Source: a virus (taxonomy: Duplodnaviria; Caudoviricetes). From it: DNA of 55,689 nt. The notes below the pieces were generated by a model. The model ran no database searches. It was given only the letters and a program-made list of their open reading frames with translations, and was not told where the DNA came from. The stretch covers positions 1 through 55,689 of the IMG/VR virus record IMGVR_UViG_3300049142_000153; one strand, written 5' to 3'. Below, in pieces: positions 27,576 to 52,290 of this stretch. Positions within the stretch are counted from its first letter, which is position 1. Each line of letters starts with the position of its first letter. A program made the translations under genes and the position numbers.

Positions 27576-27640
27576 AACTAACCCCTAATTTCCCTTCTCT
27601 ACTACGCGCGTTAGAGAGGGTTGGAAAATAGGGGTTAGTT
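27576..27640. repeat. AT-rich long imperfect inverted repeat (candidate origin)
   Basis: Perfect 12-bp arms aactaaccccta/taggggttagtt plus inner pairing around ctacgcgcgt. Confidence 0.65.
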
Positions 27641-40653: not shown

Positions 40654-41175
40654 ATGGGCGGGATCAGCTTCGCGCCGATACCTGGGACTGACGGTAGGTA
40701 TGTCGCGGATAGCGAGGGGACCCTTTACGGCTTCCGCGGAGCGCTGAAGGCATCCCGTCGTCGCGAACGGCGAGCCAACGGCTCCAAGGGTCATGAGCAC
40801 TTGGGGGTATCCGTCTGCTACATCTCCGGTAAGCGAACGCGCTGGGTTCACCACCTCGTCTACGAGGCATTTCACGGATCGGTCCCTGACGGACAGATGG
40901 TCCGCCACCTGGACGGCGACCCCACGAACAACCGGCTGGAGAACCTCGCAGCCGGGACACACGCAGACAACATGAACGATCGCGACGCCCACGGCACAAC
41001 GGCTCGGGGTGAGCGACACGGCTGCGCCAAGTTGACCGTCGAGCAGGTTTCAGAGATCCGGCGAATCTACGCCGCCGGCGGGATTACACAGGCTGCGCTC
41101 GGTCGGAAGTTCGGCATCAGCCAGGCCATGACGGGATACATCGTGCGCGGCGAGTACTGGAGGGAGTCTGCATGA
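40654..41175 (+). CDS. HNH homing-type endonuclease with C-terminal HTH
   Basis: VHHLV..AF.G...VRHLDGDPTNN...NL...N; AKLT...TQAALGRKFGIS. Confidence 0.88.
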   Translation: MGGISFAPIPGTDGRYVADSEGTLYGFRGALKASRRRERRANGSKGHEHLGVSVCYISGKRTRWVHHLVYEAFHGSVPDGQMVRHLDGDPTNNRLENLAAGTHADNMNDRDAHGTTARGERHGCAKLTVEQVSEIRRIYAAGGITQAALGRKFGISQAMTGYIVRGEYWRESA

Positions 41176-43682
41176 GGCTGTCGGAGATCCTTGGGCGGCT
41201 CGATGGGGTCACGGACGACCACGACGGCTTCCTTGCCCTCTGCCCCGCGCACAAGGACCGGAACACGCCGTCGCTGAAGCTCACGTTGAAGGAGGGCGGG
41301 AAGCTCCTGTTCGTCTGTCGTACGGGCTGCGACAAGGCTGACGTCCTGGCGGCCATGCGCATGCGTGAGGCCGATCTATTCGACGTCGTGAACGACATGG
41401 GCGCACACGCCATCTCAGCGAAGGTACCGGAGTCCGTGAGCGTCGCGGAGATAGCAGGGCTCCGAGCGTTCATCGACGCGGCAGTTGGCAAGCTGGAGCG
41501 CTCCTCGGAGTGGCCGGAGCGTGCCCGTGCCTACGCGTTCGAGCGCTTCGGACTCAGTGCTGAGCAGTGTGCAGATTTGGGCGTCGGCGTGTACGACCCC
41601 GGCGACGCGATGATCAAGCGATCGTGGCTGTCCGGTGCGTTCACCCGGTACCCGAGGCTAACCGTGCCCCTCACAGGGTTCGACGGGGTCGTTCGAGGTC
41701 TCCAGGGGCGTGACCTCTCCGGTAAGTGCCCCGCGCGGTGGGTCTCCCTGACCAACGTCGACGGGAAGACGTGGGCGAAGTATGGCGTCCTCTCTGCCGG
41801 CGCCGGGTACGACACGATCCTTGTGACGGAGGGCCCCGGTGACGGACTGACATCTGTTGGTGTCGGCTACGACGCGCTCATCATCCGCGGTGCCGGGTTG
41901 GCACGGAACGCGGTCCTAGTGGCGGAACTCGTGGAGCACCTCCGCGGGCGTGACGTAGTTCTAGCCTTCGACCCTGACGACGCTGGAGCACGTGGTATCG
42001 GCGCCCTGGCCACGGCGCTAGTCGAGGACGGTAACGCCCCGCGTCAGCTCCCCTTCCCGAACTCTGGGGAGGATCTGACCGCCTGGCGGGAGCGGACGCC
42101 GGACGCGTTCGCGGCAGAGCTGCACCGTGCGGTACGGACGGCAACCGTCGTCGAGCTGGTGGTACCCGCATCGACTCCCGCTCCGTCGCCGGAAGTGGAG
42201 GACAGTCTCCCCGCCACTGACGCGGCTCTGGCGACGATGGACCTGTCCGCCCGGCAGATGTTCGACAACACCGACGTCGGCATTGCCGTCATGCTGCGCG
42301 ACTTCATCGCTCGCGACGGCGGGGGAGTCCGCTACGCCAAGGGGCTCGGCTTCCTTTGCTGGGACGGGAAGGTGTGGGCGCCCGGAGGGGAGAAGGTGCG
42401 CGAGTCGCTACATCTGCTTGGCGCGGAGTTGATCGCGTCGGGTGACGACTCGAAGCGCCGGCTGGCCCTGAAGGCACTTAGCAATCGCAGTATCGACGCA
42501 GTCCTGAAGGAGCTTCCCGCGGTGCCTGGCGTGCCAGTGGACGCCATGTCGTTCGACGCTCATGACGACCTGCTGTCCGTGGCCAACGGGACGATCAACC
42601 TGCGTACGGGGGAGCTTCGTCCGCACAATCCCGCGGACCTGATCACGAAGCGCCTGGAGGTGGCGTACCGCCCGGAGGCGACGGCCGACCGTTGGGAGCA
42701 GTTCCTTCGGGAGGTGTTCCCGAACCACCCGGAGATGCCGTCGTTCGTTCAGCGGCTCACAGGCTATGGGATCACGGGCTACACGAGTGAGCAGCTCTTC
42801 GTGATCCATCACGGAGGCGGCAAGAACGGTAAGACCGTGTACACGTCGACCACGAGCCACGTCTTCAAGGGTGCAGTACAGAACAGCGAGTTCACAACGT
42901 TCGAGAAGACGCCGGAGGAGGGAGCGCCGTCTCCGGGGCTCGCGCGACTTCGCGGGTATCGCATGGTGCTGGCGTCTGAGAGCGAGAAGTATGCGCGGCT
43001 CGCGGAACCACTCATCAAGCGGCTGACCGGCGACGGCAACATCATCACGACTCGGTTCCTGCATCAGAACCCGTTCTCCTACCGCCCCCAGTTCCTCCTT
43101 CAGGTGGAGACGAATTACAAGCCGGCCATCCTTAGCCAGGACTACGGAATCTGGAGGCGCGTAAAGCTCATCCCGTGGGAGGCCGTGTTCGACGGGCCGA
43201 AGCAGGACCCGCAGCTTCAGGCGAAGCTCCGGGCGGAGTCGGAGGGCATCCTCGCGTGGGCCGTGCGCGGATCCGTCGAATGGTTCGCGCACGGGCTGAA
43301 CGAGCCCGCGTCGGTGTCGGCCGCTACGACGGCGTACCGAGAGTCGGAGGATCGACTTCAGGAGTTCCTCAACGCGTGCACCGTTCGTGAGGAGGGCGCC
43401 CGAGTCGCTCCAATGGCCATCCGTCGGACGTATGCGGAGTGGGCGGAGGACGCCGGACTTGACCGCAAGGAGAAGTTGTCCGGCTGGGCACTCGCGGTCG
43501 AACTGGAGAGCCGAGGCTTCAAGAAAGACAAGCGCAAGGGGGCTTGGGGGTTCAACGGTCTACGCCTTATGACGGACGACGAGCGGGCTTTCGCAAGTCG
43601 GCTTGCGGAGGTCGTTGACGAGCCTGCCGACCAACCCACCGCCGACACGGACATCTTCGGGCAGACGAAGGAGGCAGCGTGA
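41172..43682 (+). CDS. DNA primase-helicase (Zn finger, TOPRIM, D5/P4-type SF3 helicase)
   Basis: CPAHKD..C, TEGPGD, DPDDAG, GGGKNGKT, IWRR. Confidence 0.92.
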   Translation: MRLSEILGRLDGVTDDHDGFLALCPAHKDRNTPSLKLTLKEGGKLLFVCRTGCDKADVLAAMRMREADLFDVVNDMGAHAISAKVPESVSVAEIAGLRAFIDAAVGKLERSSEWPERARAYAFERFGLSAEQCADLGVGVYDPGDAMIKRSWLSGAFTRYPRLTVPLTGFDGVVRGLQGRDLSGKCPARWVSLTNVDGKTWAKYGVLSAGAGYDTILVTEGPGDGLTSVGVGYDALIIRGAGLARNAVLVAELVEHLRGRDVVLAFDPDDAGARGIGALATALVEDGNAPRQLPFPNSGEDLTAWRERTPDAFAAELHRAVRTATVVELVVPASTPAPSPEVEDSLPATDAALATMDLSARQMFDNTDVGIAVMLRDFIARDGGGVRYAKGLGFLCWDGKVWAPGGEKVRESLHLLGAELIASGDDSKRRLALKALSNRSIDAVLKELPAVPGVPVDAMSFDAHDDLLSVANGTINLRTGELRPHNPADLITKRLEVAYRPEATADRWEQFLREVFPNHPEMPSFVQRLTGYGITGYTSEQLFVIHHGGGKNGKTVYTSTTSHVFKGAVQNSEFTTFEKTPEEGAPSPGLARLRGYRMVLASESEKYARLAEPLIKRLTGDGNIITTRFLHQNPFSYRPQFLLQVETNYKPAILSQDYGIWRRVKLIPWEAVFDGPKQDPQLQAKLRAESEGILAWAVRGSVEWFAHGLNEPASVSAATTAYRESEDRLQEFLNACTVREEGARVAPMAIRRTYAEWAEDAGLDRKEKLSGWALAVELESRGFKKDKRKGAWGFNGLRLMTDDERAFASRLAEVVDEPADQPTADTDIFGQTKEAA

Positions 43683-45604
43683 AGTACTTCCCCTACACCA
43701 TCGCGGGCGAAGAGACGATGACCCGTGTCCCTGAGACGGCCGCGGACCTCGACGAGTTCCGTCGGTGGGTCGAGCGCATGGCGCGTTCCGGCGAGATGGT
43801 CGGGGCGGACTCGGAGACGACGGGGCTCGACACGTTCTCTCCGACGTACCGCCTGCGGACGGTCCAATTCGGGGACAAGCGTCAGGCGTGGGTGATCTGC
43901 GTCGAGCTTGGGCCGATGTTCGTGGAGGCCGCCCGGTGGGCGCTTCTGACGTTGCCTCGTCTCGTTTTCCACTTCGCTCCCTTCGACTTGCTCGTTATCG
44001 ACCGGCACCTTGGGGTTCCGTTGGCGACGCTAGCCCTGAAGGTGACCGACTCGAAGATTATCGCGCATCTGTTCGATTCGCGACCCAAACACGAGGGTGG
44101 CTACGGACTGAAGCTGAAGGAGCTCTGCGCGCGGGACGTAGACCCGAGCGCGCCGGACACGCAGGAGGATCTGACCGCTGTCTTCCGCTCCATAGGCGAG
44201 ACGAAGGCGACGGGTTGGGCAAAGATCGACATCAACCACCCGACGTATCTCCAGTACGCGGGCCTGGACGCGATCCTCGTGTCCCGGTGGCTCCCGATCG
44301 GGGAGGCGCGGCTCCGTAAGGTCGGCGTGCGTCAAACACTCGTGGACTTCGAGCACCGCGTGATGTACGTGTGTGCGCTCATGGAGCGTCGCGGAATGCT
44401 CGTCGATCAGGACTACGTGCGCCCGCTCGTCGAGCGGCTTCAGGAGGAGGCAGAGCTCCACGCCGGCAAGGCTCGCCAGTACGGCGTAACGAGCGTCAAC
44501 GCCCCGGCGCAGGTCTCCGCGGCCCTCGTCGGCATGGGGGAGACCCTGACGGAGAAGACGGACTCCGGGAACCTGAAGGTGGACAAGGAAGTTCTTCAGG
44601 CCCTGGCAGACGTCGACCGGGATTGGGAGCGCATCGGGGCGCGGAAGCCCAACCCCCTGGCGGACGCGGTCCTTCGCTCGAAGCGCGCAGGCAAGTGGGC
44701 GAAGTCCTACGGCGTGGCCATGCGTGACGGCGTCGACGTCGACGGCCGCATCCATCCGAAGGTGAACAGTCTCCAGGCCAGGACAGCGCGTATGTCTATC
44801 TCTGGTCCTCCGCTCCAGCAACTCCCGTCGGGAGACTGGACGATCCGTCGCGCGCTACTGGCGGACCCCGGGCACCGCATCTTCTCCGTCGACTACAGCG
44901 CGGTGGAGATGCGCGTCCTTGCCGCCCTGGCGGACGAGAAGACGATGAAGAAGGCCATTGCGGAGGGCCGTGACCTCCATGACTTCACCGCGGAACTCAT
45001 CTGGGGTCCCGACTTCACGAAGGCGCACCGCAAGATGGGCAAGGGGGTCGGCTTCGGCAAGGTGTACGGAGGTGGCGCAACGACGCTGAGTCGGCAGACC
45101 GGCGCACCGATCGACGAAGTCAAGGTGGCCATTGCGGCATACGACCGCGTGTACCCGGGGATCAAGCGCTACTCGCGCGAAGTCCAGCGTAAGGCACGCG
45201 CCAACGGCTACGTCGTCATCACGCCGACCGGCCGGCGCCTCGCCCTGGACCGGGACCGCGTCTATGCGGCGACGAACTACGCCGTGCAGAGCACCGCGCG
45301 TGACGTGCTGTGTCAAGCGCTGCTCAACATGCACGACAAGGGGCTGACGGAGTACCTCCTCCTGCCGATCCACGACGAGGTTCTCGGGTCTGCGCCCGCG
45401 GACATCGTCCACGACGTGTCACGGGAGGTGGCGGAGACGATGACCATGAACTTCTTCGGAGTTCCGCTCGACGCGGACCTTGACGGCGCCGTGGGTGGCC
45501 GCTCGTGGGGGTCTCTCTACATGAAGACCTCTGACGGGAAGATCGACGGCGCCCTCCGTGTACGCGAGGACGAGTGGTACGCGAGCGTGGGACTGGCCGC
45601 GTGA
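43679..45604 (+). CDS. Family A DNA polymerase with 3'-5' exonuclease
   Basis: DSETTGL, DYSAVEMR, R..GK...FG..YG, IHDE. Confidence 0.95.
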   Translation: MKYFPYTIAGEETMTRVPETAADLDEFRRWVERMARSGEMVGADSETTGLDTFSPTYRLRTVQFGDKRQAWVICVELGPMFVEAARWALLTLPRLVFHFAPFDLLVIDRHLGVPLATLALKVTDSKIIAHLFDSRPKHEGGYGLKLKELCARDVDPSAPDTQEDLTAVFRSIGETKATGWAKIDINHPTYLQYAGLDAILVSRWLPIGEARLRKVGVRQTLVDFEHRVMYVCALMERRGMLVDQDYVRPLVERLQEEAELHAGKARQYGVTSVNAPAQVSAALVGMGETLTEKTDSGNLKVDKEVLQALADVDRDWERIGARKPNPLADAVLRSKRAGKWAKSYGVAMRDGVDVDGRIHPKVNSLQARTARMSISGPPLQQLPSGDWTIRRALLADPGHRIFSVDYSAVEMRVLAALADEKTMKKAIAEGRDLHDFTAELIWGPDFTKAHRKMGKGVGFGKVYGGGATTLSRQTGAPIDEVKVAIAAYDRVYPGIKRYSREVQRKARANGYVVITPTGRRLALDRDRVYAATNYAVQSTARDVLCQALLNMHDKGLTEYLLLPIHDEVLGSAPADIVHDVSREVAETMTMNFFGVPLDADLDGAVGGRSWGSLYMKTSDGKIDGALRVREDEWYASVGLAA

Positions 45605-46609: not shown

Positions 46610-46831
46610 TTGATCATCGTAACGGGGCCGCAAGACACTGCCGACGACAAAGAGAGCATCGAGGCTCTCGCGGCTCTCCTCGACGGAGTACCCGCCTTCA
46701 GTGTCGTTCTCCAGTGGGCCGCCGCAACTGCCCTCTATTGCCTCTCCGGGTGGGAGAAGTGCCCGATAGCGGTAGCTGACATGACGATAGCCGAGCAGTT
46801 CAGGCTGCCGGTTCATCACGTGTCGGGCTGA
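46610..46831 (+). CDS. Hypothetical protein
   Basis: Abuts upstream gene; L.GWE.C..A motif. Confidence 0.55.
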   Translation: MIIVTGPQDTADDKESIEALAALLDGVPAFSVVLQWAAATALYCLSGWEKCPIAVADMTIAEQFRLPVHHVSG

Positions 46832-46992: not shown

Positions 46993-47793
46993 ATGAGCCG
47001 AGACGACATCAGCACCGAGCAGATCCGCGCGGCTCAGACGGGCGACTCCGACGCCATGTGGGCCGTCGTCCAGGGCTGCGACGCCATGCTCCGCGGGATC
47101 GTCCGCAGCGTCGCCCCGGGAGCCAGTGCGGAGGACGCGGAGGACTACCTCCAGGAAGCGCGAGTCACTCTCATTCAGCACGTGCGCGACTACGACTCGG
47201 AAGGGTCCGCAGCGAAGCTGACGTCATACGTCTACCGTGCCGCCCGGCGAGCCGTCACGGCCGCGCACATCGCGAACACCTGCGCCGTCACCGTCCCCGC
47301 CACGGCCACGATCACCATCCGTCATCTCCTGTGGAGCCACGCAGGCGACGTGGAGAAGGTGTGGGCGGAGCTCCAGGAGGAGAAGAGCGCGACGCACAGG
47401 ATCTCTCGGGAGATGTTCGTCGCCATCCTCGAAGCAATCACGGAGTCGACCAGCCTCGACGCTTCCGCGGGAGGGGAAGACGCGGACGGGTCGAACCTCA
47501 CCCTTGCCGACGTCATCGCCGACCCCTCGTCGGAGCCGACTGACGCCATCGAGCGCAGGGACTACGCCCGGTGGCTCATGACGCAGATCCCGCAGCGCCA
47601 GTCCTTCGCGCTTCGTGCCTTCTACGGCGTCAACATGACCTCGATGACGGACGCGGAGGCCGCAAACACGATGGGCGTCAAGCTCAACAACCTCCGTCAA
47701 CTGCGAAGCGCAGGGTGCACCAGTGCCCGCAAGGTCGCCGCGACGTTCCGCCAGATCCACACCGAGACCGCCCCGCTTTCCGCAGCAGCGTGA
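46993..47793 (+). CDS. Phage-encoded sigma70-family RNA polymerase sigma factor
   Basis: AQTGD..A, EDYLQEA...V.DYD (region 2), SLD...TLAD.I.D (region 3), region 4 HTH. Confidence 0.85.
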   Translation: MSRDDISTEQIRAAQTGDSDAMWAVVQGCDAMLRGIVRSVAPGASAEDAEDYLQEARVTLIQHVRDYDSEGSAAKLTSYVYRAARRAVTAAHIANTCAVTVPATATITIRHLLWSHAGDVEKVWAELQEEKSATHRISREMFVAILEAITESTSLDASAGGEDADGSNLTLADVIADPSSEPTDAIERRDYARWLMTQIPQRQSFALRAFYGVNMTSMTDAEAANTMGVKLNNLRQLRSAGCTSARKVAATFRQIHTETAPLSAAA

Positions 47794-47827: not shown

Positions 47828-47974
47828 ATGAACCGACTTCCCTCCCTCGACGACTACGACCTCCAAGGCGTGCGCCTCGACGAGGCCGCCCTGTGGGGTG
47901 ACGACGTGAGGTACGCAGTCGAGGCCCGTTCCGACTCAACGCCCCTCGACGGCTTTTCCGTCGAGCAGTTCTGA
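47828..47974 (+). CDS. Small acidic hypothetical protein
   Basis: GGAG RBS; followed by operator. Confidence 0.5.
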   Translation: MNRLPSLDDYDLQGVRLDEAALWGDDVRYAVEARSDSTPLDGFSVEQF

Positions 47975-48023: not shown

Positions 48024-48557
48024 ATGACTGAGTACGTCGCCAAGTGCAGCTCTGGCGTTCGGGACACCATCACGGCCCGCGTCGACGGTTCGTCCATCGA
48101 GCTGAAGGCTGCGCACGAAGGGGGCCGAAAGCTGGAGATCTACCTCTACGAGGACGACGCCCGCACCTTCGCCCGCGGCATCCTCGCACTAGCCGACGAG
48201 CTCGACGGGGAAGAGGTGGCGGAGGCTGCTCCGAAGCGCGCGGTCAAGGTCGGTGACCGGGTGCGGATCACTCGAAACCACGTAATGGACGGAGACGAGA
48301 ACCTCGGAACTGTAGGCCAGCTGTCGCGCATCGACGCCGGCGACCTCGTGTACCCGTACCTCGTCGAGCTGCCCGACGGCATCGAGTGGTGGTGTGTGAA
48401 GGTCGAGCTCGTCGACGCGCCGGAGCCCGCGCCGGTCGACGCCCCCTCGTCCGCCTTCGCCGGCCTCGTCACGCAGGCGAAGCAGCTGCTCGAAGGCACC
48501 GCGCACAACGGCGCGGACATCATCACCCTCGCGCGCGAGATGGCCGACCGGGTGTAG
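48024..48557 (+). CDS. Hypothetical protein
   Basis: GAGGAG RBS; flanked by operators. Confidence 0.7.
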   Translation: MTEYVAKCSSGVRDTITARVDGSSIELKAAHEGGRKLEIYLYEDDARTFARGILALADELDGEEVAEAAPKRAVKVGDRVRITRNHVMDGDENLGTVGQLSRIDAGDLVYPYLVELPDGIEWWCVKVELVDAPEPAPVDAPSSAFAGLVTQAKQLLEGTAHNGADIITLAREMADRV

Positions 48558-48603
48558 CGCAAAACGTTTAGCGGTACCGACAGTCACTCACAGAGGAGAG
48601 AGC

Positions 48604-49023
48604 ATGTACGCGGAAGAGACGCTGGGCGAGTACGAGGACGACGGCACCATGCCGGACAACGTGGACAAGCTGAGAGAGTCCGTCGTCGGTCACCGCATCG
48701 TCAAGGCGGAGGAGGTGGAGGTCCAGACTCGGTGGGGCGGCTCTGAGAAGGCACTCGTCATCACCCTGGACAACGGCAAGTGCGTGGAGCTCCAGGGCTC
48801 CAACGACTGTTGTGCGTACACGGAGCTGGAGAGCTTCCTTCTCCACGCGGACCGTGTCGACCACATCATTACCGGAGTCGGTACCACCGACGGGTTCGCT
48901 ACATGGCACATATTCGCCGACATGGGCGACGTCCTCGAACTGTCGGTGGGGTGGAGCTCCGGGAACCCCTTCTACTACGGCTACGGGTTCAACATCAGCG
49001 TCAGGGAGCTGACGAGCCAGTAG
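48604..49023 (+). CDS. Hypothetical protein (DCCA motif)
   Basis: GAGGAG RBS; flanked by operators. Confidence 0.7.
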   Translation: MYAEETLGEYEDDGTMPDNVDKLRESVVGHRIVKAEEVEVQTRWGGSEKALVITLDNGKCVELQGSNDCCAYTELESFLLHADRVDHIITGVGTTDGFATWHIFADMGDVLELSVGWSSGNPFYYGYGFNISVRELTSQ

Positions 49024-49076
49024 CGCAAAACGTTTGTCGCTAGGTGTTGTGGTGGCCGACTCATCTATGCCATAGT
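49021..49076 (+). promoter_or_regulatory. Operator plus promoter cassette 1 (TTGTGG-N18-CATAGT)
   Basis: About 56-bp repeat, four copies. Confidence 0.75.
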
Positions 49077-49142
49077 CATCACACCGCAAGGCACTAACGC
49101 AGCGGGGCGCCTCACACGGGGCGCCCCAGGGGAGGGGACGAG

Positions 49143-49397
49143 ATGAGCACCAGCACGGTTCGCGAAGAGGCTCAGTCCACGATTCAGACGCTGTCCGCCA
49201 AGCTCACCAACGAAGCCCTGTGCCTCGCGTGGATGGGTACCGAGGGCAAGCCTGCCACTCAAGAACTCGCCATAGTACGCGGTTGGATCATGGATGAGCT
49301 GAACCGCCGTCTCGGAGACGACCTGTTCGACGAATGGCTGATGGATGTCGACGAGAACGGCGACGGCGTTACTCCGCTCGCCTACTTGACGCAGTAG
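49143..49397 (+). CDS. Hypothetical protein
   Basis: GGAGGGG RBS downstream of cassette 1. Confidence 0.65.
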   Translation: MSTSTVREEAQSTIQTLSAKLTNEALCLAWMGTEGKPATQELAIVRGWIMDELNRRLGDDLFDEWLMDVDENGDGVTPLAYLTQ

Positions 49398-49405
49398 GAG
49401 ACGTC

Positions 49406-49591
49406 ATGCCGAAGAACCGGGTCGCCTTCCTGGCGCTTGAGGGGGGCGGCATGGGCGCCGGGGAGCTTCTATGCCTCACCGGATTCGTGCGCTGTGCACG
49501 CTGTGGGTTCGTAGTCCACAGCGAGAGGCTCGACGAGCTGCCCGAGCACTATTGCGCTCGGCGGCTAGAGCTTCGCCGCACATCCGACTGA
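49406..49591 (+). CDS. Small Cys/His-containing hypothetical protein
   Basis: AGGAG RBS; CARC...HYC; stop 2 nt before the ribozyme. Confidence 0.55.
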   Translation: MPKNRVAFLALEGGGMGAGELLCLTGFVRCARCGFVVHSERLDELPEHYCARRLELRRTSD

Positions 49592-49593
49592 TA

Positions 49594-49655
49594 GCCGAAA
49601 CGCCCTCCGGGGCGTCCGCGGGGAATGGCCTACCCGCGCTGAGGAGGCAGGCCGT
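49594..49655 (+). ncRNA. Type II hammerhead ribozyme with loop I pseudoknot
   Basis: gcc-GAAA-cgccc(uccg)gggcg-UC^-cgcggg(gaauggccua)cccgcg-CUGAGGA-ggc-aggccgu; all core nucleotides and stems intact. Confidence 0.9.
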
Positions 49656-49665
49656 AGGAGGACAG

Positions 49666-49875
49666 ATGGCGGACATAGGCGAGCGTGCCGAGGACTTGAA
49701 GTCGGGCGACCTGATCGTGTGTAACGACGGCGATTACTGGCTTCGGGTCATCGAGATTCGCAGGCTGGTGCCGAACGTGGTCGACGTGGTGACACACCTC
49801 CGTCAGAGTCCCGGCGGGCCGCACCATGTCATGCACTACAGCCCAGACGACCGCGTAGAGATCGTCCGATTCTGA
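49666..49875 (+). CDS. Hypothetical protein (AEDL..GD, SH3-like)
   Basis: AGGAGG RBS directly after the ribozyme. Confidence 0.65.
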   Translation: MADIGERAEDLKSGDLIVCNDGDYWLRVIEIRRLVPNVVDVVTHLRQSPGGPHHVMHYSPDDRVEIVRF

Positions 49876-49880
49876 AGCCC

Positions 49881-49951
49881 GCCCCGTCTAGGTAAGCCTG
49901 ACCGACACCCCCAGTGCCGGCGGGCGCGCGGTTCGACTCCGCGGCGGGACA
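49881..49951 (+). ncRNA. tRNA-like element / degenerate tRNA
   Basis: T arm cgcgg-TTCGACT-ccgcg; 6/7 acceptor pairs; shrunken D arm; non-canonical anticodon arm. Confidence 0.45.
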
Positions 49952-49979
49952 CTCGTAGAGATCCACGTCAGGAGGTCCC

Positions 49980-50141
49980 ATGTTGAAGCGCATCCTCGAC
50001 CGTCGACACCCGAACGCCGCTCGCGCGCAGGACGTCGCGCGGGAAGAAGCGGACGGTCGATTCGACTACCGGTCCCCGGAAGGCCGTCGACTCGTGACCG
50101 CCAACCGGGCATACCTGGCCCTGCACCCCGAGTGGAAATAG
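49980..50141 (+). CDS. Small hypothetical protein
   Basis: AGGAGG RBS. Confidence 0.55.
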   Translation: MLKRILDRRHPNAARAQDVAREEADGRFDYRSPEGRRLVTANRAYLALHPEWK

Positions 50142-50150
50142 GAGGTGTCC

Positions 50151-50303
50151 ATGCGCCGCACCCCCAACGACTCCGCCGTCCGAGCAGCCTTCGACCGTTT
50201 CCACGCGACGGCGAGCACGAACCGTAAGTCGGCCGTCGAGAAACTCCACAACGACATGCAGCGTGCCGGCGGACCGACGCCGACGCGGGACGAGGAGAAG
50301 TGA
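50151..50303 (+). CDS. Small hypothetical protein
   Basis: AGGAGG RBS. Confidence 0.55.
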   Translation: MRRTPNDSAVRAAFDRFHATASTNRKSAVEKLHNDMQRAGGPTPTRDEEK

Positions 50304-50405
50304 CCGTGGACAGCATCCGAATTGCAGCCGCATGGGCCTTCATGCTCGTCGCCGGCCTGGCGTCGTGGGCCCTCGTCGCCCTGGCCGTGCGCGGCGTCGG
50401 CTGAG

Positions 50406-50461
50406 TAGCGCAAAACGTTTATCGCTAGGTGTTGTGGTGGTCGACTCATCTGTGGCATAGT
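50406..50461 (+). promoter_or_regulatory. Operator plus promoter cassette 2
   Basis: TTGTGG-N18-CATAGT. Confidence 0.75.
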
Positions 50462-50496
50462 CAGAGCAACGCAAGGCACTCACGAAGGAGAACAAC

Positions 50497-50748
50497 ATGA
50501 ACGCCAGCGTCGCCATCATCAACGGCCGCACCTTCCGCCCTGTCATCCGCGACTTCTTCACCGTCGACGGCATCGTGAACGACTTCCGCAACGCCGGCAC
50601 CCGCGCTGACGCCATCGCCGACGTTGCCCGCATCTACGGAGTCGACAACCGCCGCGCTTTCCTGATCGCCCGCCACTTCATGAACCGCACCCTCCGCCTT
50701 CGCGCCATCCTCGACGCCGACCGTCGCCCTGTGCACCACATGGTGTGA
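50497..50748 (+). CDS. Hypothetical protein
   Basis: AAGGAG RBS; lies between promoter and hairpin. Confidence 0.65.
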   Translation: MNASVAIINGRTFRPVIRDFFTVDGIVNDFRNAGTRADAIADVARIYGVDNRRAFLIARHFMNRTLRLRAILDADRRPVHHMV

Positions 50749-50761
50749 TCCGGAACTTCCC

Positions 50762-50796
50762 AAGAGCCCCTGTCAATTGCGGAGACAGGGGCTCTT
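50762..50796 (+). terminator. Hairpin with ATTGCGG loop
   Basis: aagagcccctgtc/gacaggggctctt. Confidence 0.65.
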
Positions 50797-50826
50797 CCCG
50801 TAGTGCGAGTCACTCCAGGAGGAGCC

Positions 50827-51039
50827 ATGACCGAGAGAGCCGAAGAGCTGCACATCACCGCTGGCGAGATCCGTCAGGGCGACGTCTTCACCCTCCACAC
50901 CCACGAGCGCACGGCGCTCCGCGACGCGTGGCCCGTACTGTTCCGCGGGCACGTCTACATCCGGTTCGAGGGCGGGGGAGGGGCGACGATCCCAGCGGAC
51001 CGCCCCCTGACCGTCACGCGCACCGTGGCCACGGCGTGA
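50827..51039 (+). CDS. Hypothetical protein
   Basis: AGGAGG RBS. Confidence 0.6.
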   Translation: MTERAEELHITAGEIRQGDVFTLHTHERTALRDAWPVLFRGHVYIRFEGGGGATIPADRPLTVTRTVATA

Positions 51040-51555: not shown

Positions 51556-51561
51556 CCACCT

Positions 51562-51598
51562 GCGGAGCCCCTGTCAATTGCGGTGACGGGGGCTCCGC
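51562..51598 (+). terminator. Hairpin with ATTGCGG loop
   Basis: gcggagcccctgtca/tgacgggggctccgc. Confidence 0.65.
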
Positions 51599-51603
51599 TG
51601 GAG

Positions 51604-51659
51604 TAGCGCAAAACGTTTGTCGCTAGGTGTTGTGGTGGCCGACTCATCTATGTCATAGT
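51604..51659 (+). promoter_or_regulatory. Operator plus promoter cassette 4
   Basis: TTGTGG-N18-CATAGT. Confidence 0.75.
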
Positions 51660-52203: not shown

Positions 52204-52212
52204 CAACACCCT

Positions 52213-52247
52213 TGGAGCCCCTGTCAATTGCGGTGACGGGGGCTCCA
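52213..52247 (+). terminator. Hairpin with ATTGCGG loop
   Basis: tggagcccctgtca/tgacgggggctcca. Confidence 0.65.
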
Positions 52248-52290
52248 CTGCACCAGCCACTAACGAACCATGCACACGAACCGAGGAGCC

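Follow-up and report, generated by a model that had tools for sequence, protein, structure and literature searches.

The locus described in this study lies in a stretch of viral DNA of 55,689 bases (hereafter the window), an IMG/VR 'provirus' record that is estimated to be 94% complete and carries nearly all of its genes on the plus strand. Among named phages, Streptomyces phage Samy is the closest, and its authors have grouped it with PhiC31 (PMC11302927). Replication genes and a phage sigma-factor gene precede the locus (Table 1), and past the sigma-factor gene the window is occupied by small ORFans that are split by hairpin repeats and by seven copies of a promoter/operator-like repeat, at 46826, 47972, 48549, 49015, 50400, 51204 and 51598. 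Each copy is about 27-88 nt long, lies upstream of small genes and is made up of a near-palindrome, GCGCAAAACGTTT(A/G)(G/T)CGC, a block of the form GGTGTTGTGGTGG...CATAGT...CGCAAGGCAC, and a Shine-Dalgarno site. A repeat-like block is also found upstream of a gene in Samy (L041 4400-4460), and a search of phage records with a 106-nt promoter-like repeat gave no match. Since a sigma-70 consensus scan returned nothing, we infer a promoter function rather than read it from a consensus. The early promoters of PhiC31 are repeated and carry conserved inverted-repeat operators. The seven repeats near the sigma-factor gene are probably phage-specific promoters with an operator, and transcription of the unit of interest here, which extends to the repeat at 50400 and holds five genes, probably starts at the copy at 49015. 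Early expression of this block is plausible. The primary leader of the operon contains a GC hairpin (49104-49128) just ahead of a Shine-Dalgarno site. Elsewhere in the region, a GC-rich hairpin, GAGCCCCTGTCAATTGCGGTGACGGGGGCTC, recurs at gene ends (50756-50806, 51557-51607 and 52207-52257); it is terminator-like and has no T run. Another observation from the window is a near-perfect palindrome of 63 nt with 46% GC (27577-27639) between the structural and replication modules, which a miRNA model hits equally well on either strand and which resembles a sequence beside a tRNA array in locus L021; an origin, a cos-like site and a recombination site are all conceivable roles for it.

Table 1. Features of the ribozyme locus, with the upstream modules of the window and the related remnant in phage Samy
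Feature	Position	Strand	Remarks
D5-type primase	41172-43682		upstream of the ribozyme
Family A DNA polymerase	43679-45604		upstream of the ribozyme
Phage sigma-factor gene	46993-47793		upstream of the ribozyme
Promoter/operator-like repeat	49015-49105	+	near-palindrome GCGCAAAACGTTTGTCGC, then a conserved block of ~50 nt
First gene of the unit	49143-49397	+
Upstream gene (second of the unit)	49406-49591	+	61 aa, no family; stop TGA 49589-49591
Type II hammerhead ribozyme	49593-49655	+	Rfam RF02276; junction in the MFE fold; covariation in relatives
Stem II	GCC 49594-49596 / GGC 49646-49648	+	read from the sequence
GAAA of the catalytic core	49597-49600	+	read from the sequence
Stem III	CGCCC 49601-49605 / GGGCG 49610-49614	+	plus the pair A49600-U49615; read from the sequence
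Stem III loop, UCCG	49606-49609	+	read from the sequence
GUC cleavage triplet	49614-49616	+	predicted cut after C49616
Stem I	CGCGGG 49617-49622 / CCCGCG 49633-49638	+	read from the sequence
Loop I, GAAUGGCCUA	49623-49632	+	between the two strands of stem I
Core CUGAGGA	49639-49645	+	read from the sequence
Pseudoknot of loop I and 3' tail	AUGGCCU 49625-49631 / AGGCCGU 49649-49655	+	7 bp
Shine-Dalgarno site AGGAGG	49656-49661	+	abuts the last pseudoknot pair; conserved with the ribozyme
Downstream gene (third of the unit)	49666-49875	+	start codon ATG at 49666; 69-aa ORFan in a variable slot; led by the ribozyme
tRNA-like element	49881-49952	+	72 nt; directly after the downstream gene
Fourth gene of the unit	49980-50141	+	AGGAGG at 49970, ATG at 49980
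Fifth gene of the unit	50151-50303	+
Relic in Samy	L041 4841-4950 (OR263580.1 about 47840-47949)		unannotated in the record

The two genes on either side of the ribozyme have no Pfam or PHROG family. The upstream gene has a GC content of 0.71, 0.50 and 0.77 at the three codon positions and a GGAG 6 nt before its ATG, and its product shares 81% amino acid identity with that of a gene in locus L002 over residues 26-84 of the longer predicted protein (P0002) only. The extension of the reading frame, 49334-49405, has a GC3 of 0.38. This low value, together with the restriction of the L002 match to residues 26-84, makes ATG 49406 the most likely start instead of 49334, and the call of an 85-aa ORF is probably wrong. 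The downstream gene shows GC contents of 0.69, 0.36 and 0.80 by codon position, and no homologue of its product was found in IMG/VR (pattern and tblastn searches) or in phage records. A competing ORF, 49471-49875, would run through the ribozyme, and its GC3 is 0.53 in 49471-49590 against 0.80 in 49666-49875. The codon-position GC thus supports both flanking genes and rules out the ORF across the ribozyme.

Between these genes lies an element that the first-pass annotation had described as a type II hammerhead with a pseudoknot, starting just past a stop codon and ending at the Shine-Dalgarno site of the next gene. The stems, core, GUC triplet, pseudoknot, stop codon and ribosome-binding site of that description were all recovered from the sequence, and the placement between the two genes was confirmed in the same way. 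In both the cmscan alignment and the MFE fold stem II is open, while loops close stems I and III, and the MFE fold reproduces the three-way junction. Type II hammerheads with a pseudoknot between loop I and the 3' tail were described from prophage operons in 2011 by Perreault et al. (PMC3088659), who accepted candidates with a CUGANGA / GAAA / NUH core and intact core-adjacent pairs and noted a stem II as short as two pairs. The window has CUGAGGA, GAAA and GUC at these positions, and the core-adjacent pairs C49617-G49638, G49646-C49596 and A49600-U49615 are all intact in the sequence, the cmscan alignment and the MFE fold. The tertiary contact looked for in this class is a pseudoknot of at least 4 bp joining loop I to the residues directly behind stem II; that of the window has 7 bp and consists of six Watson-Crick pairs and one U-G pair. 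The MFE fold also pairs 49651-49655 with the start-codon region 49666-49670 (5 bp). Consensus scans for a terminator or promoter revealed none in 48500-50900, the ribozyme site included.

Statistical support for this assignment comes from the Infernal search with Rfam models that had been suggested as a check, in which the Hammerhead_II family (RF02276) matches 49593-49656 on the plus strand over the full model length with 40.5 bits, above its gathering score of 37. The E value is 7.5e-5 for the 55.7-kb window against 4227 Rfam families and 1.8e-8 when computed per genome. This is the sole match above a cut-off in the whole window; of the 11 Rfam matches at E <= 10, the second best of any family has an E value of 0.11, and none of them indicates a second hammerhead or other ribozyme elsewhere in the window. 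None of the 14 control genomes was matched by RF02276. The margin of 3.5 bits is modest, in part because the free core position holds a G, whereas U prevails there among the relatives. The pseudoknot lies outside RF02276 scoring and therefore counts as independent evidence. Anchored directly after stem II, a helix of at least 7 pairs was obtained with 288 of 100,000 tails of random composition and with 226 of 100,000 real 12-mers taken from the window, so the chance of a pseudoknot of at least 7 bp is about 0.25% (range 0.23-0.29%). The fold energy does not exceed that of shuffled sequences (z = 0.01; 95 of 200 shuffles are at least as stable), so thermodynamic stability by itself is uninformative here.

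Relatives of the element were sought by sequence and by structure. A sensitive blastn search with the region reached 41 phage records, of which 30 belong to Streptomyces phages. Eleven loci were scanned with Rfam, ten taken from the blastn matches and the other being L002, which holds the nearest relative of the upstream gene. At E <= 0.1 the scan yielded 51 matches to hammerheads, 44 of them above the cut-off, and L002 had none. Scans of whole records of R4-like phages gave 12 matches in Paedore, 11 in Thestral, 8 in Tefunt and 10 in Celia, and all R4-like hammerheads are found in the right arm, on the strand that carries the genes. The seven R4-like loci (L003, L004, L006-L009 and L012, from Paedore, Thestral, Tefunt, Alvy, Issmi, Celia and Puginator) contain 41 hammerheads, with a median distance of 16 nt from the prior annotated stop codon and of 19 nt to the next annotated start codon; placement in a leader is thus general in Streptomyces phages. 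The R4-like phages hold dense arrays of type II hammerheads, with nearly one per intergenic gap and 8-12 matches per genome. Several of them sit under ORFs annotated as 'hypothetical protein', such as the 75-nt gene 84 of Alvy, and such ORFs are probably not genes.

To describe conservation of the structure, a covariance model was built from 14 close copies and used to align 63 hammerheads from 25 sources. In this alignment 98.7% of the cells pair, compared with 32-48% in slid controls, although fitting the alignment to the structure favoured such pairing. Changes on both sides are seen in 11 of the 15 pairs, and the covariation score was reached by none of 500 shuffles. Over 51 distinct combinations of loop and tail, from which both pseudoknot enrichment and its covariation were taken, the pseudoknot helix has a mean of 4.65 bp, against 3.73 +/- 0.16 bp with permuted tails (maximum 4.31 in 1000), in line with the account of type II hammerheads given in 2011 (PMC3088659). 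Its partners vary among copies (GGCC/GGCC, GGUC/GACC, GAUC/GAUC and UGCCC/GGGCA), and in L019 the change from UGGCCU/AGGCCG to UGGUCU/AGACCA is compensatory. Compensatory changes in both the stems and the pseudoknot indicate selection on RNA structure, beyond DNA identity alone. Taken together with the Rfam match and the published acceptance rules, these covarying relatives bear out the identification as a type II hammerhead with a pseudoknot, and, as far as sequence can establish it, the element in the window is a genuine one.

Another finding from this study concerns what stands on either side of the ribozyme in related phages. An exact-pattern scan of IMG/VR with stem I and the core of the window retrieved 13 contigs, 11 of which pass the Rfam cut-off at the site of the unit; L019 and L020 each have a second hammerhead nearby. 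In these 13 relatives, all phages of one kind with that of the window, the primase and polymerase share 64-75% nucleotide identity with those of the window and the segment of ribozyme and Shine-Dalgarno site is 88-97% identical, a high identity that within the pattern is partly a matter of ascertainment, because the relatives were retrieved with patterns drawn from the window (stem I, core, or tail plus Shine-Dalgarno site). The conserved segment begins at about TAGCC on its 5' side and ends about 4 nt beyond AGGAG on its 3' side, and the stop codon of the upstream gene is often within or directly ahead of TAGCC. Outside these edges the flanks on both sides show 27% pairwise identity, which is the background level. 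The pattern is also present in 11 Streptomyces genomes, three Selenomonas contigs and one Hyphomonadaceae MAG. At 25 Streptomyces-type loci, among which L024 and L030 are one prophage and L016 ends at the locus edge and appears to match L026, the 24 downstream ORFs of at least 30 aa fall into 16 unrelated families. Judged by these boundaries, the ribozyme and its ribosome-binding site behave as one portable unit before unrelated genes. Two or three units 190-500 nt apart, each before a small gene, are seen in some Streptomyces prophages, namely in L037 (6554-7375), L049 (5489-5790), L019 and L020. The Selenomonas (L034-L036) and Hyphomonadaceae (L038) hammerheads have the stem I and stem III sequences of the Streptomyces unit; the Selenomonas copies carry a compensated pseudoknot, UUGCCU/AGGCAG, and no Shine-Dalgarno site after it. 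Such shared sequences in distant phyla could be due to horizontal spread or to convergence.

Not all copies of the unit are intact. A second scan, with the 16 nt of tail and Shine-Dalgarno site, returned 30 loci, comprising 8 that were already known, 13 unrelated chance matches and 9 new hammerheads or relics, of which three reach the Rfam cut-off. Altogether, 14 of the 22 IMG/VR loci with the unit or its 3' part reach the cut-off, and the other eight (L018, L025, L048, L053, L054, L056, L057 and L058) are mutated or truncated. In L025, L057, L058 and L048 only the 3' part is kept, with its Shine-Dalgarno site, before genes. Samy retains a 5' portion of the hammerhead, mutated from GAAA to GAAG, which runs directly into the tRNA-like element; the slot gene is missing along with the ribozyme's 3' half, and the junction falls inside the ribozyme. 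Since copies often decay or are lost, and since L002, with the nearest relative of the upstream gene, has no hammerhead at all, the ribozyme is dispensable, and its frequent loss is what weighs most against its being strongly required.

A tRNA-like element marks the far side of the slot gene. Its acceptor stem is 7 bp long and contains a single C-A mismatch, and its T arm is canonical (CGCGG-UUCGACU-CCGCG). The D arm is truncated, the anticodon loop is rich in C and lacks U33, and no CCA is encoded. ARAGORN calls it tRNA-Thr(agt) and makes a call in the window and in six of 11 aligned relatives; the anticodons are inconsistent, and homologues are called tRNA-Gly(ccc) or left uncalled. The Rfam tRNA model (RF00005) gave no match at E <= 10 in the 451 nt searched at the element and none at this site in the 13 relatives, and given this and the inconsistent anticodons we class the element as tRNA-like only. 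A similar element in phage AbbeyMikolon is annotated as tRNA-Gly and likewise fails the Rfam tRNA model. The acceptor and T arms are invariant among relatives, apart from one compensatory pair in L017. Of the 25 loci, 20 have an element of this kind downstream of the hammerhead, at a distance of 233-645 nt, as do seven of the nine newer ones. As RNase P recognises the helix of acceptor stem and T arm, the element is possibly a second processing mark, for this enzyme; a phage tRNA-Gly in decay would be an alternative. An attP site was considered as well and is unlikely, since the element is of full length and lies inside the provirus record.

We consider it likely that the intact hammerhead of this five-gene operon of a PhiC31/Samy-like Streptomyces prophage punctuates the mRNA by a predicted self-cleavage and so uncouples the fate of the slot-gene mRNA. 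Stems I and III would fold during transcription of the operon, and the pseudoknot of loop I and the 3' tail would stack on the 3-bp stem II, docking stem I against stem II, before the RNA cuts itself after C49616. A ribosome terminating at the upstream stop codon would cover the 5' strand of the ribozyme, so that folding would have to take place before or between ribosomes. On cleavage, the upstream mRNA would end 25 nt beyond its stop codon, carrying the hairpin of stem III and a terminal 2',3'-cyclic phosphate. The downstream mRNA would start at a nucleotide that bears a 5'-OH and is already base-paired within the GC-rich stem I, and it would receive a fixed leader of 49 nt ending in AGGAGG. 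It is this geometry that suggests an effect on mRNA stability. The GC hairpin in the primary leader of the operon fits the same logic of protective leaders. The stop-codon edge, hammerhead and Shine-Dalgarno site form the 5' boundary of a variable accessory-gene slot, with the tRNA-like element as its 3' boundary, and the protected ends and standard leader would separate the fate of the slot-gene mRNA from that of its neighbours.

Access to the ribosome-binding site shows no clear gain on cleavage in a nested-fold model, which does not include pseudoknots. In the window the Shine-Dalgarno site is unpaired with a probability of 0.68 in the uncleaved and 0.78 in the cleaved RNA, and over 24 loci the means are 0.37 +/- 0.23 and 0.49 +/- 0.26, respectively; in this model access is higher after cleavage in 14 of the 24 loci and its spread is not smaller. 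Masking of the Shine-Dalgarno site by a CCUCC in stem III was also considered and rejected, as the motif is absent in L017, L018, L020 and the Selenomonas copies. We further speculate, tentatively and with clearly less confidence than in the reading above, that in PhiC31/Samy-like Streptomyces prophages the hammerhead with its Shine-Dalgarno site and the tRNA-like element form a two-part RNA punctuation that brackets a hypervariable slot and also provides homology arms for gene swapping between phages. If this is true, self-cleavage at the 5' side and RNase P at the 3' side would free any slot gene as its own standardised mRNA, and the two-part punctuation would be a natural plug-and-play expression cassette.

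Other explanations were weighed against this proposal. That the element is no hammerhead and merely resembles one by chance in GC-rich DNA could be argued from the narrow margin over the Rfam cut-off and from a fold energy no better than that of shuffles. However, the E value over the window and all families, the independent 7-bp pseudoknot, the 11 of 13 pattern-matched relatives that pass the cut-off, the strong covariation and the non-coding character of the region in the spanning frame leave this explanation with hardly any probability. It is also conceivable, although unlikely, that an active ribozyme lowers downstream expression, its 5'-OH product being marked for 5'-to-3' decay so that cleavage acts as a constitutive damper on a potentially toxic accessory gene. 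The glmS ribozyme and RNase J1 of Bacillus provide a precedent for decay after cleavage that leaves a 5'-OH. Several slot products are small, hydrophobic and possibly toxic (L013, L014, L018, L026 and L033), the fold model shows no clear gain in Shine-Dalgarno access on cleavage, and copies of the ribozyme are often lost while the gene stays, all of which would agree with such a damper. The first nucleotide of the 3' product, however, is paired in the 6-bp GC stem I and offers no single-stranded 5' end, and a 5' end paired in a GC stem is a poor geometry for an exonuclease. The hairpin of the primary leader also argues against a damper, since it suggests that 5' hairpins serve as protective leaders in this operon.

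Another view is that the RNA activity is incidental or lost and that the segment persists as a conserved site of recombination between related phages, a module boundary for the exchange of accessory genes, and for the good ribosome-binding site at its 3' end. The sharp identity edges with unrelated flanks on both sides and the 16 unrelated gene families behind one unit agree with it, as do the 3'-only relics, the Samy junction within the ribozyme and the eight of 22 copies under the Rfam cut-off. We regard it as quite improbable, less likely even than the damper: the window copy keeps every catalytic nucleotide and core-adjacent pair, and paralogous copies hold their stems and pseudoknot by compensatory change, as in L019. 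A role in recombination and a functional ribozyme are in any case compatible and not exclusive of each other. We retain self-cleaving punctuation of the operon as the preferred reading.

The ribozyme itself does not differ from the type II hammerheads of bacteria and prophages (RF02276; PMC3088659), with which it shares the core, topology, pseudoknot, short stem II and intergenic site in a prophage operon. It differs from those described in the text of that paper in that its tail runs into a conserved AGGAGG and that the unit recurs before unrelated genes; this comparison concerns the text, and Streptomyces phage copies may already be listed in the supplementary alignments of that paper or in the Rfam full alignments. 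Clustered prophage hammerheads that flank single genes cleave both in vitro and in E. coli (PMC3088659). The dense arrays in R4-like Streptomyces phages, with 8-12 matches per genome, are a dense form of such clusters. In an Agrobacterium tumefaciens prophage, a triple arrangement of hammerheads surrounds ardA, and there, as would be the case here, self-cleaving RNA bounds a small accessory gene in a polycistronic phage transcript (PMC3088659). Unlike the ardA locus, the window has a single hammerhead, and what bounds the gene on its other side is a tRNA-like element instead of a second ribozyme (PMC3088659). Hammerheads in the 5' untranslated regions of fungal and plant RNA viruses, which enable translation initiation, similarly lie just upstream of an ORF, and their self-cleavage is tied to its expression (PMC13725137). 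Those hammerheads, however, are type I, eukaryotic and cap-independent, whereas the window belongs to a dsDNA phage with an ordinary Shine-Dalgarno site (PMC13725137). With regard to engineered elements, the window also resembles RiboJ in placing a hammerhead directly before a ribosome-binding site. RiboJ is a synthetic ribozyme insulator in which a hammerhead directly upstream of the ribosome-binding site discards all upstream sequence on cleavage and leaves a fixed leader. Unlike RiboJ, the element in the window is natural and has type II topology and a pseudoknot; the more even access to the ribosome-binding site that an insulator would be predicted to bring was not seen in the fold model. 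Among the papers covered by a literature search, none ties hammerheads to Streptomyces phages or actinobacteriophages. The kind of element is already known, and the novelty lies in its context, a fixed unit of ribozyme and ribosome-binding site before many unrelated genes.

In summary, type II hammerheads have been known from prophages since 2011. The phage lineage described here amounts to a natural experiment on their biological role: no fewer than 16 unrelated small genes are preceded by one unit of ribozyme and ribosome-binding site, intact copies are found alongside mutated and truncated ones, the gene is followed by a tRNA-like partner, and Samy is a named and inducible relative that has lost the 3' half of the ribozyme together with the gene. 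The study also bears on phage annotation, as several hammerheads in deposited genomes of R4-like phages are hidden under ORFs called 'hypothetical protein'. What self-cleavage does in a phage operon could emerge from comparing the natural variants of the unit in the ends and half-lives of their mRNAs and in the amount of protein made.
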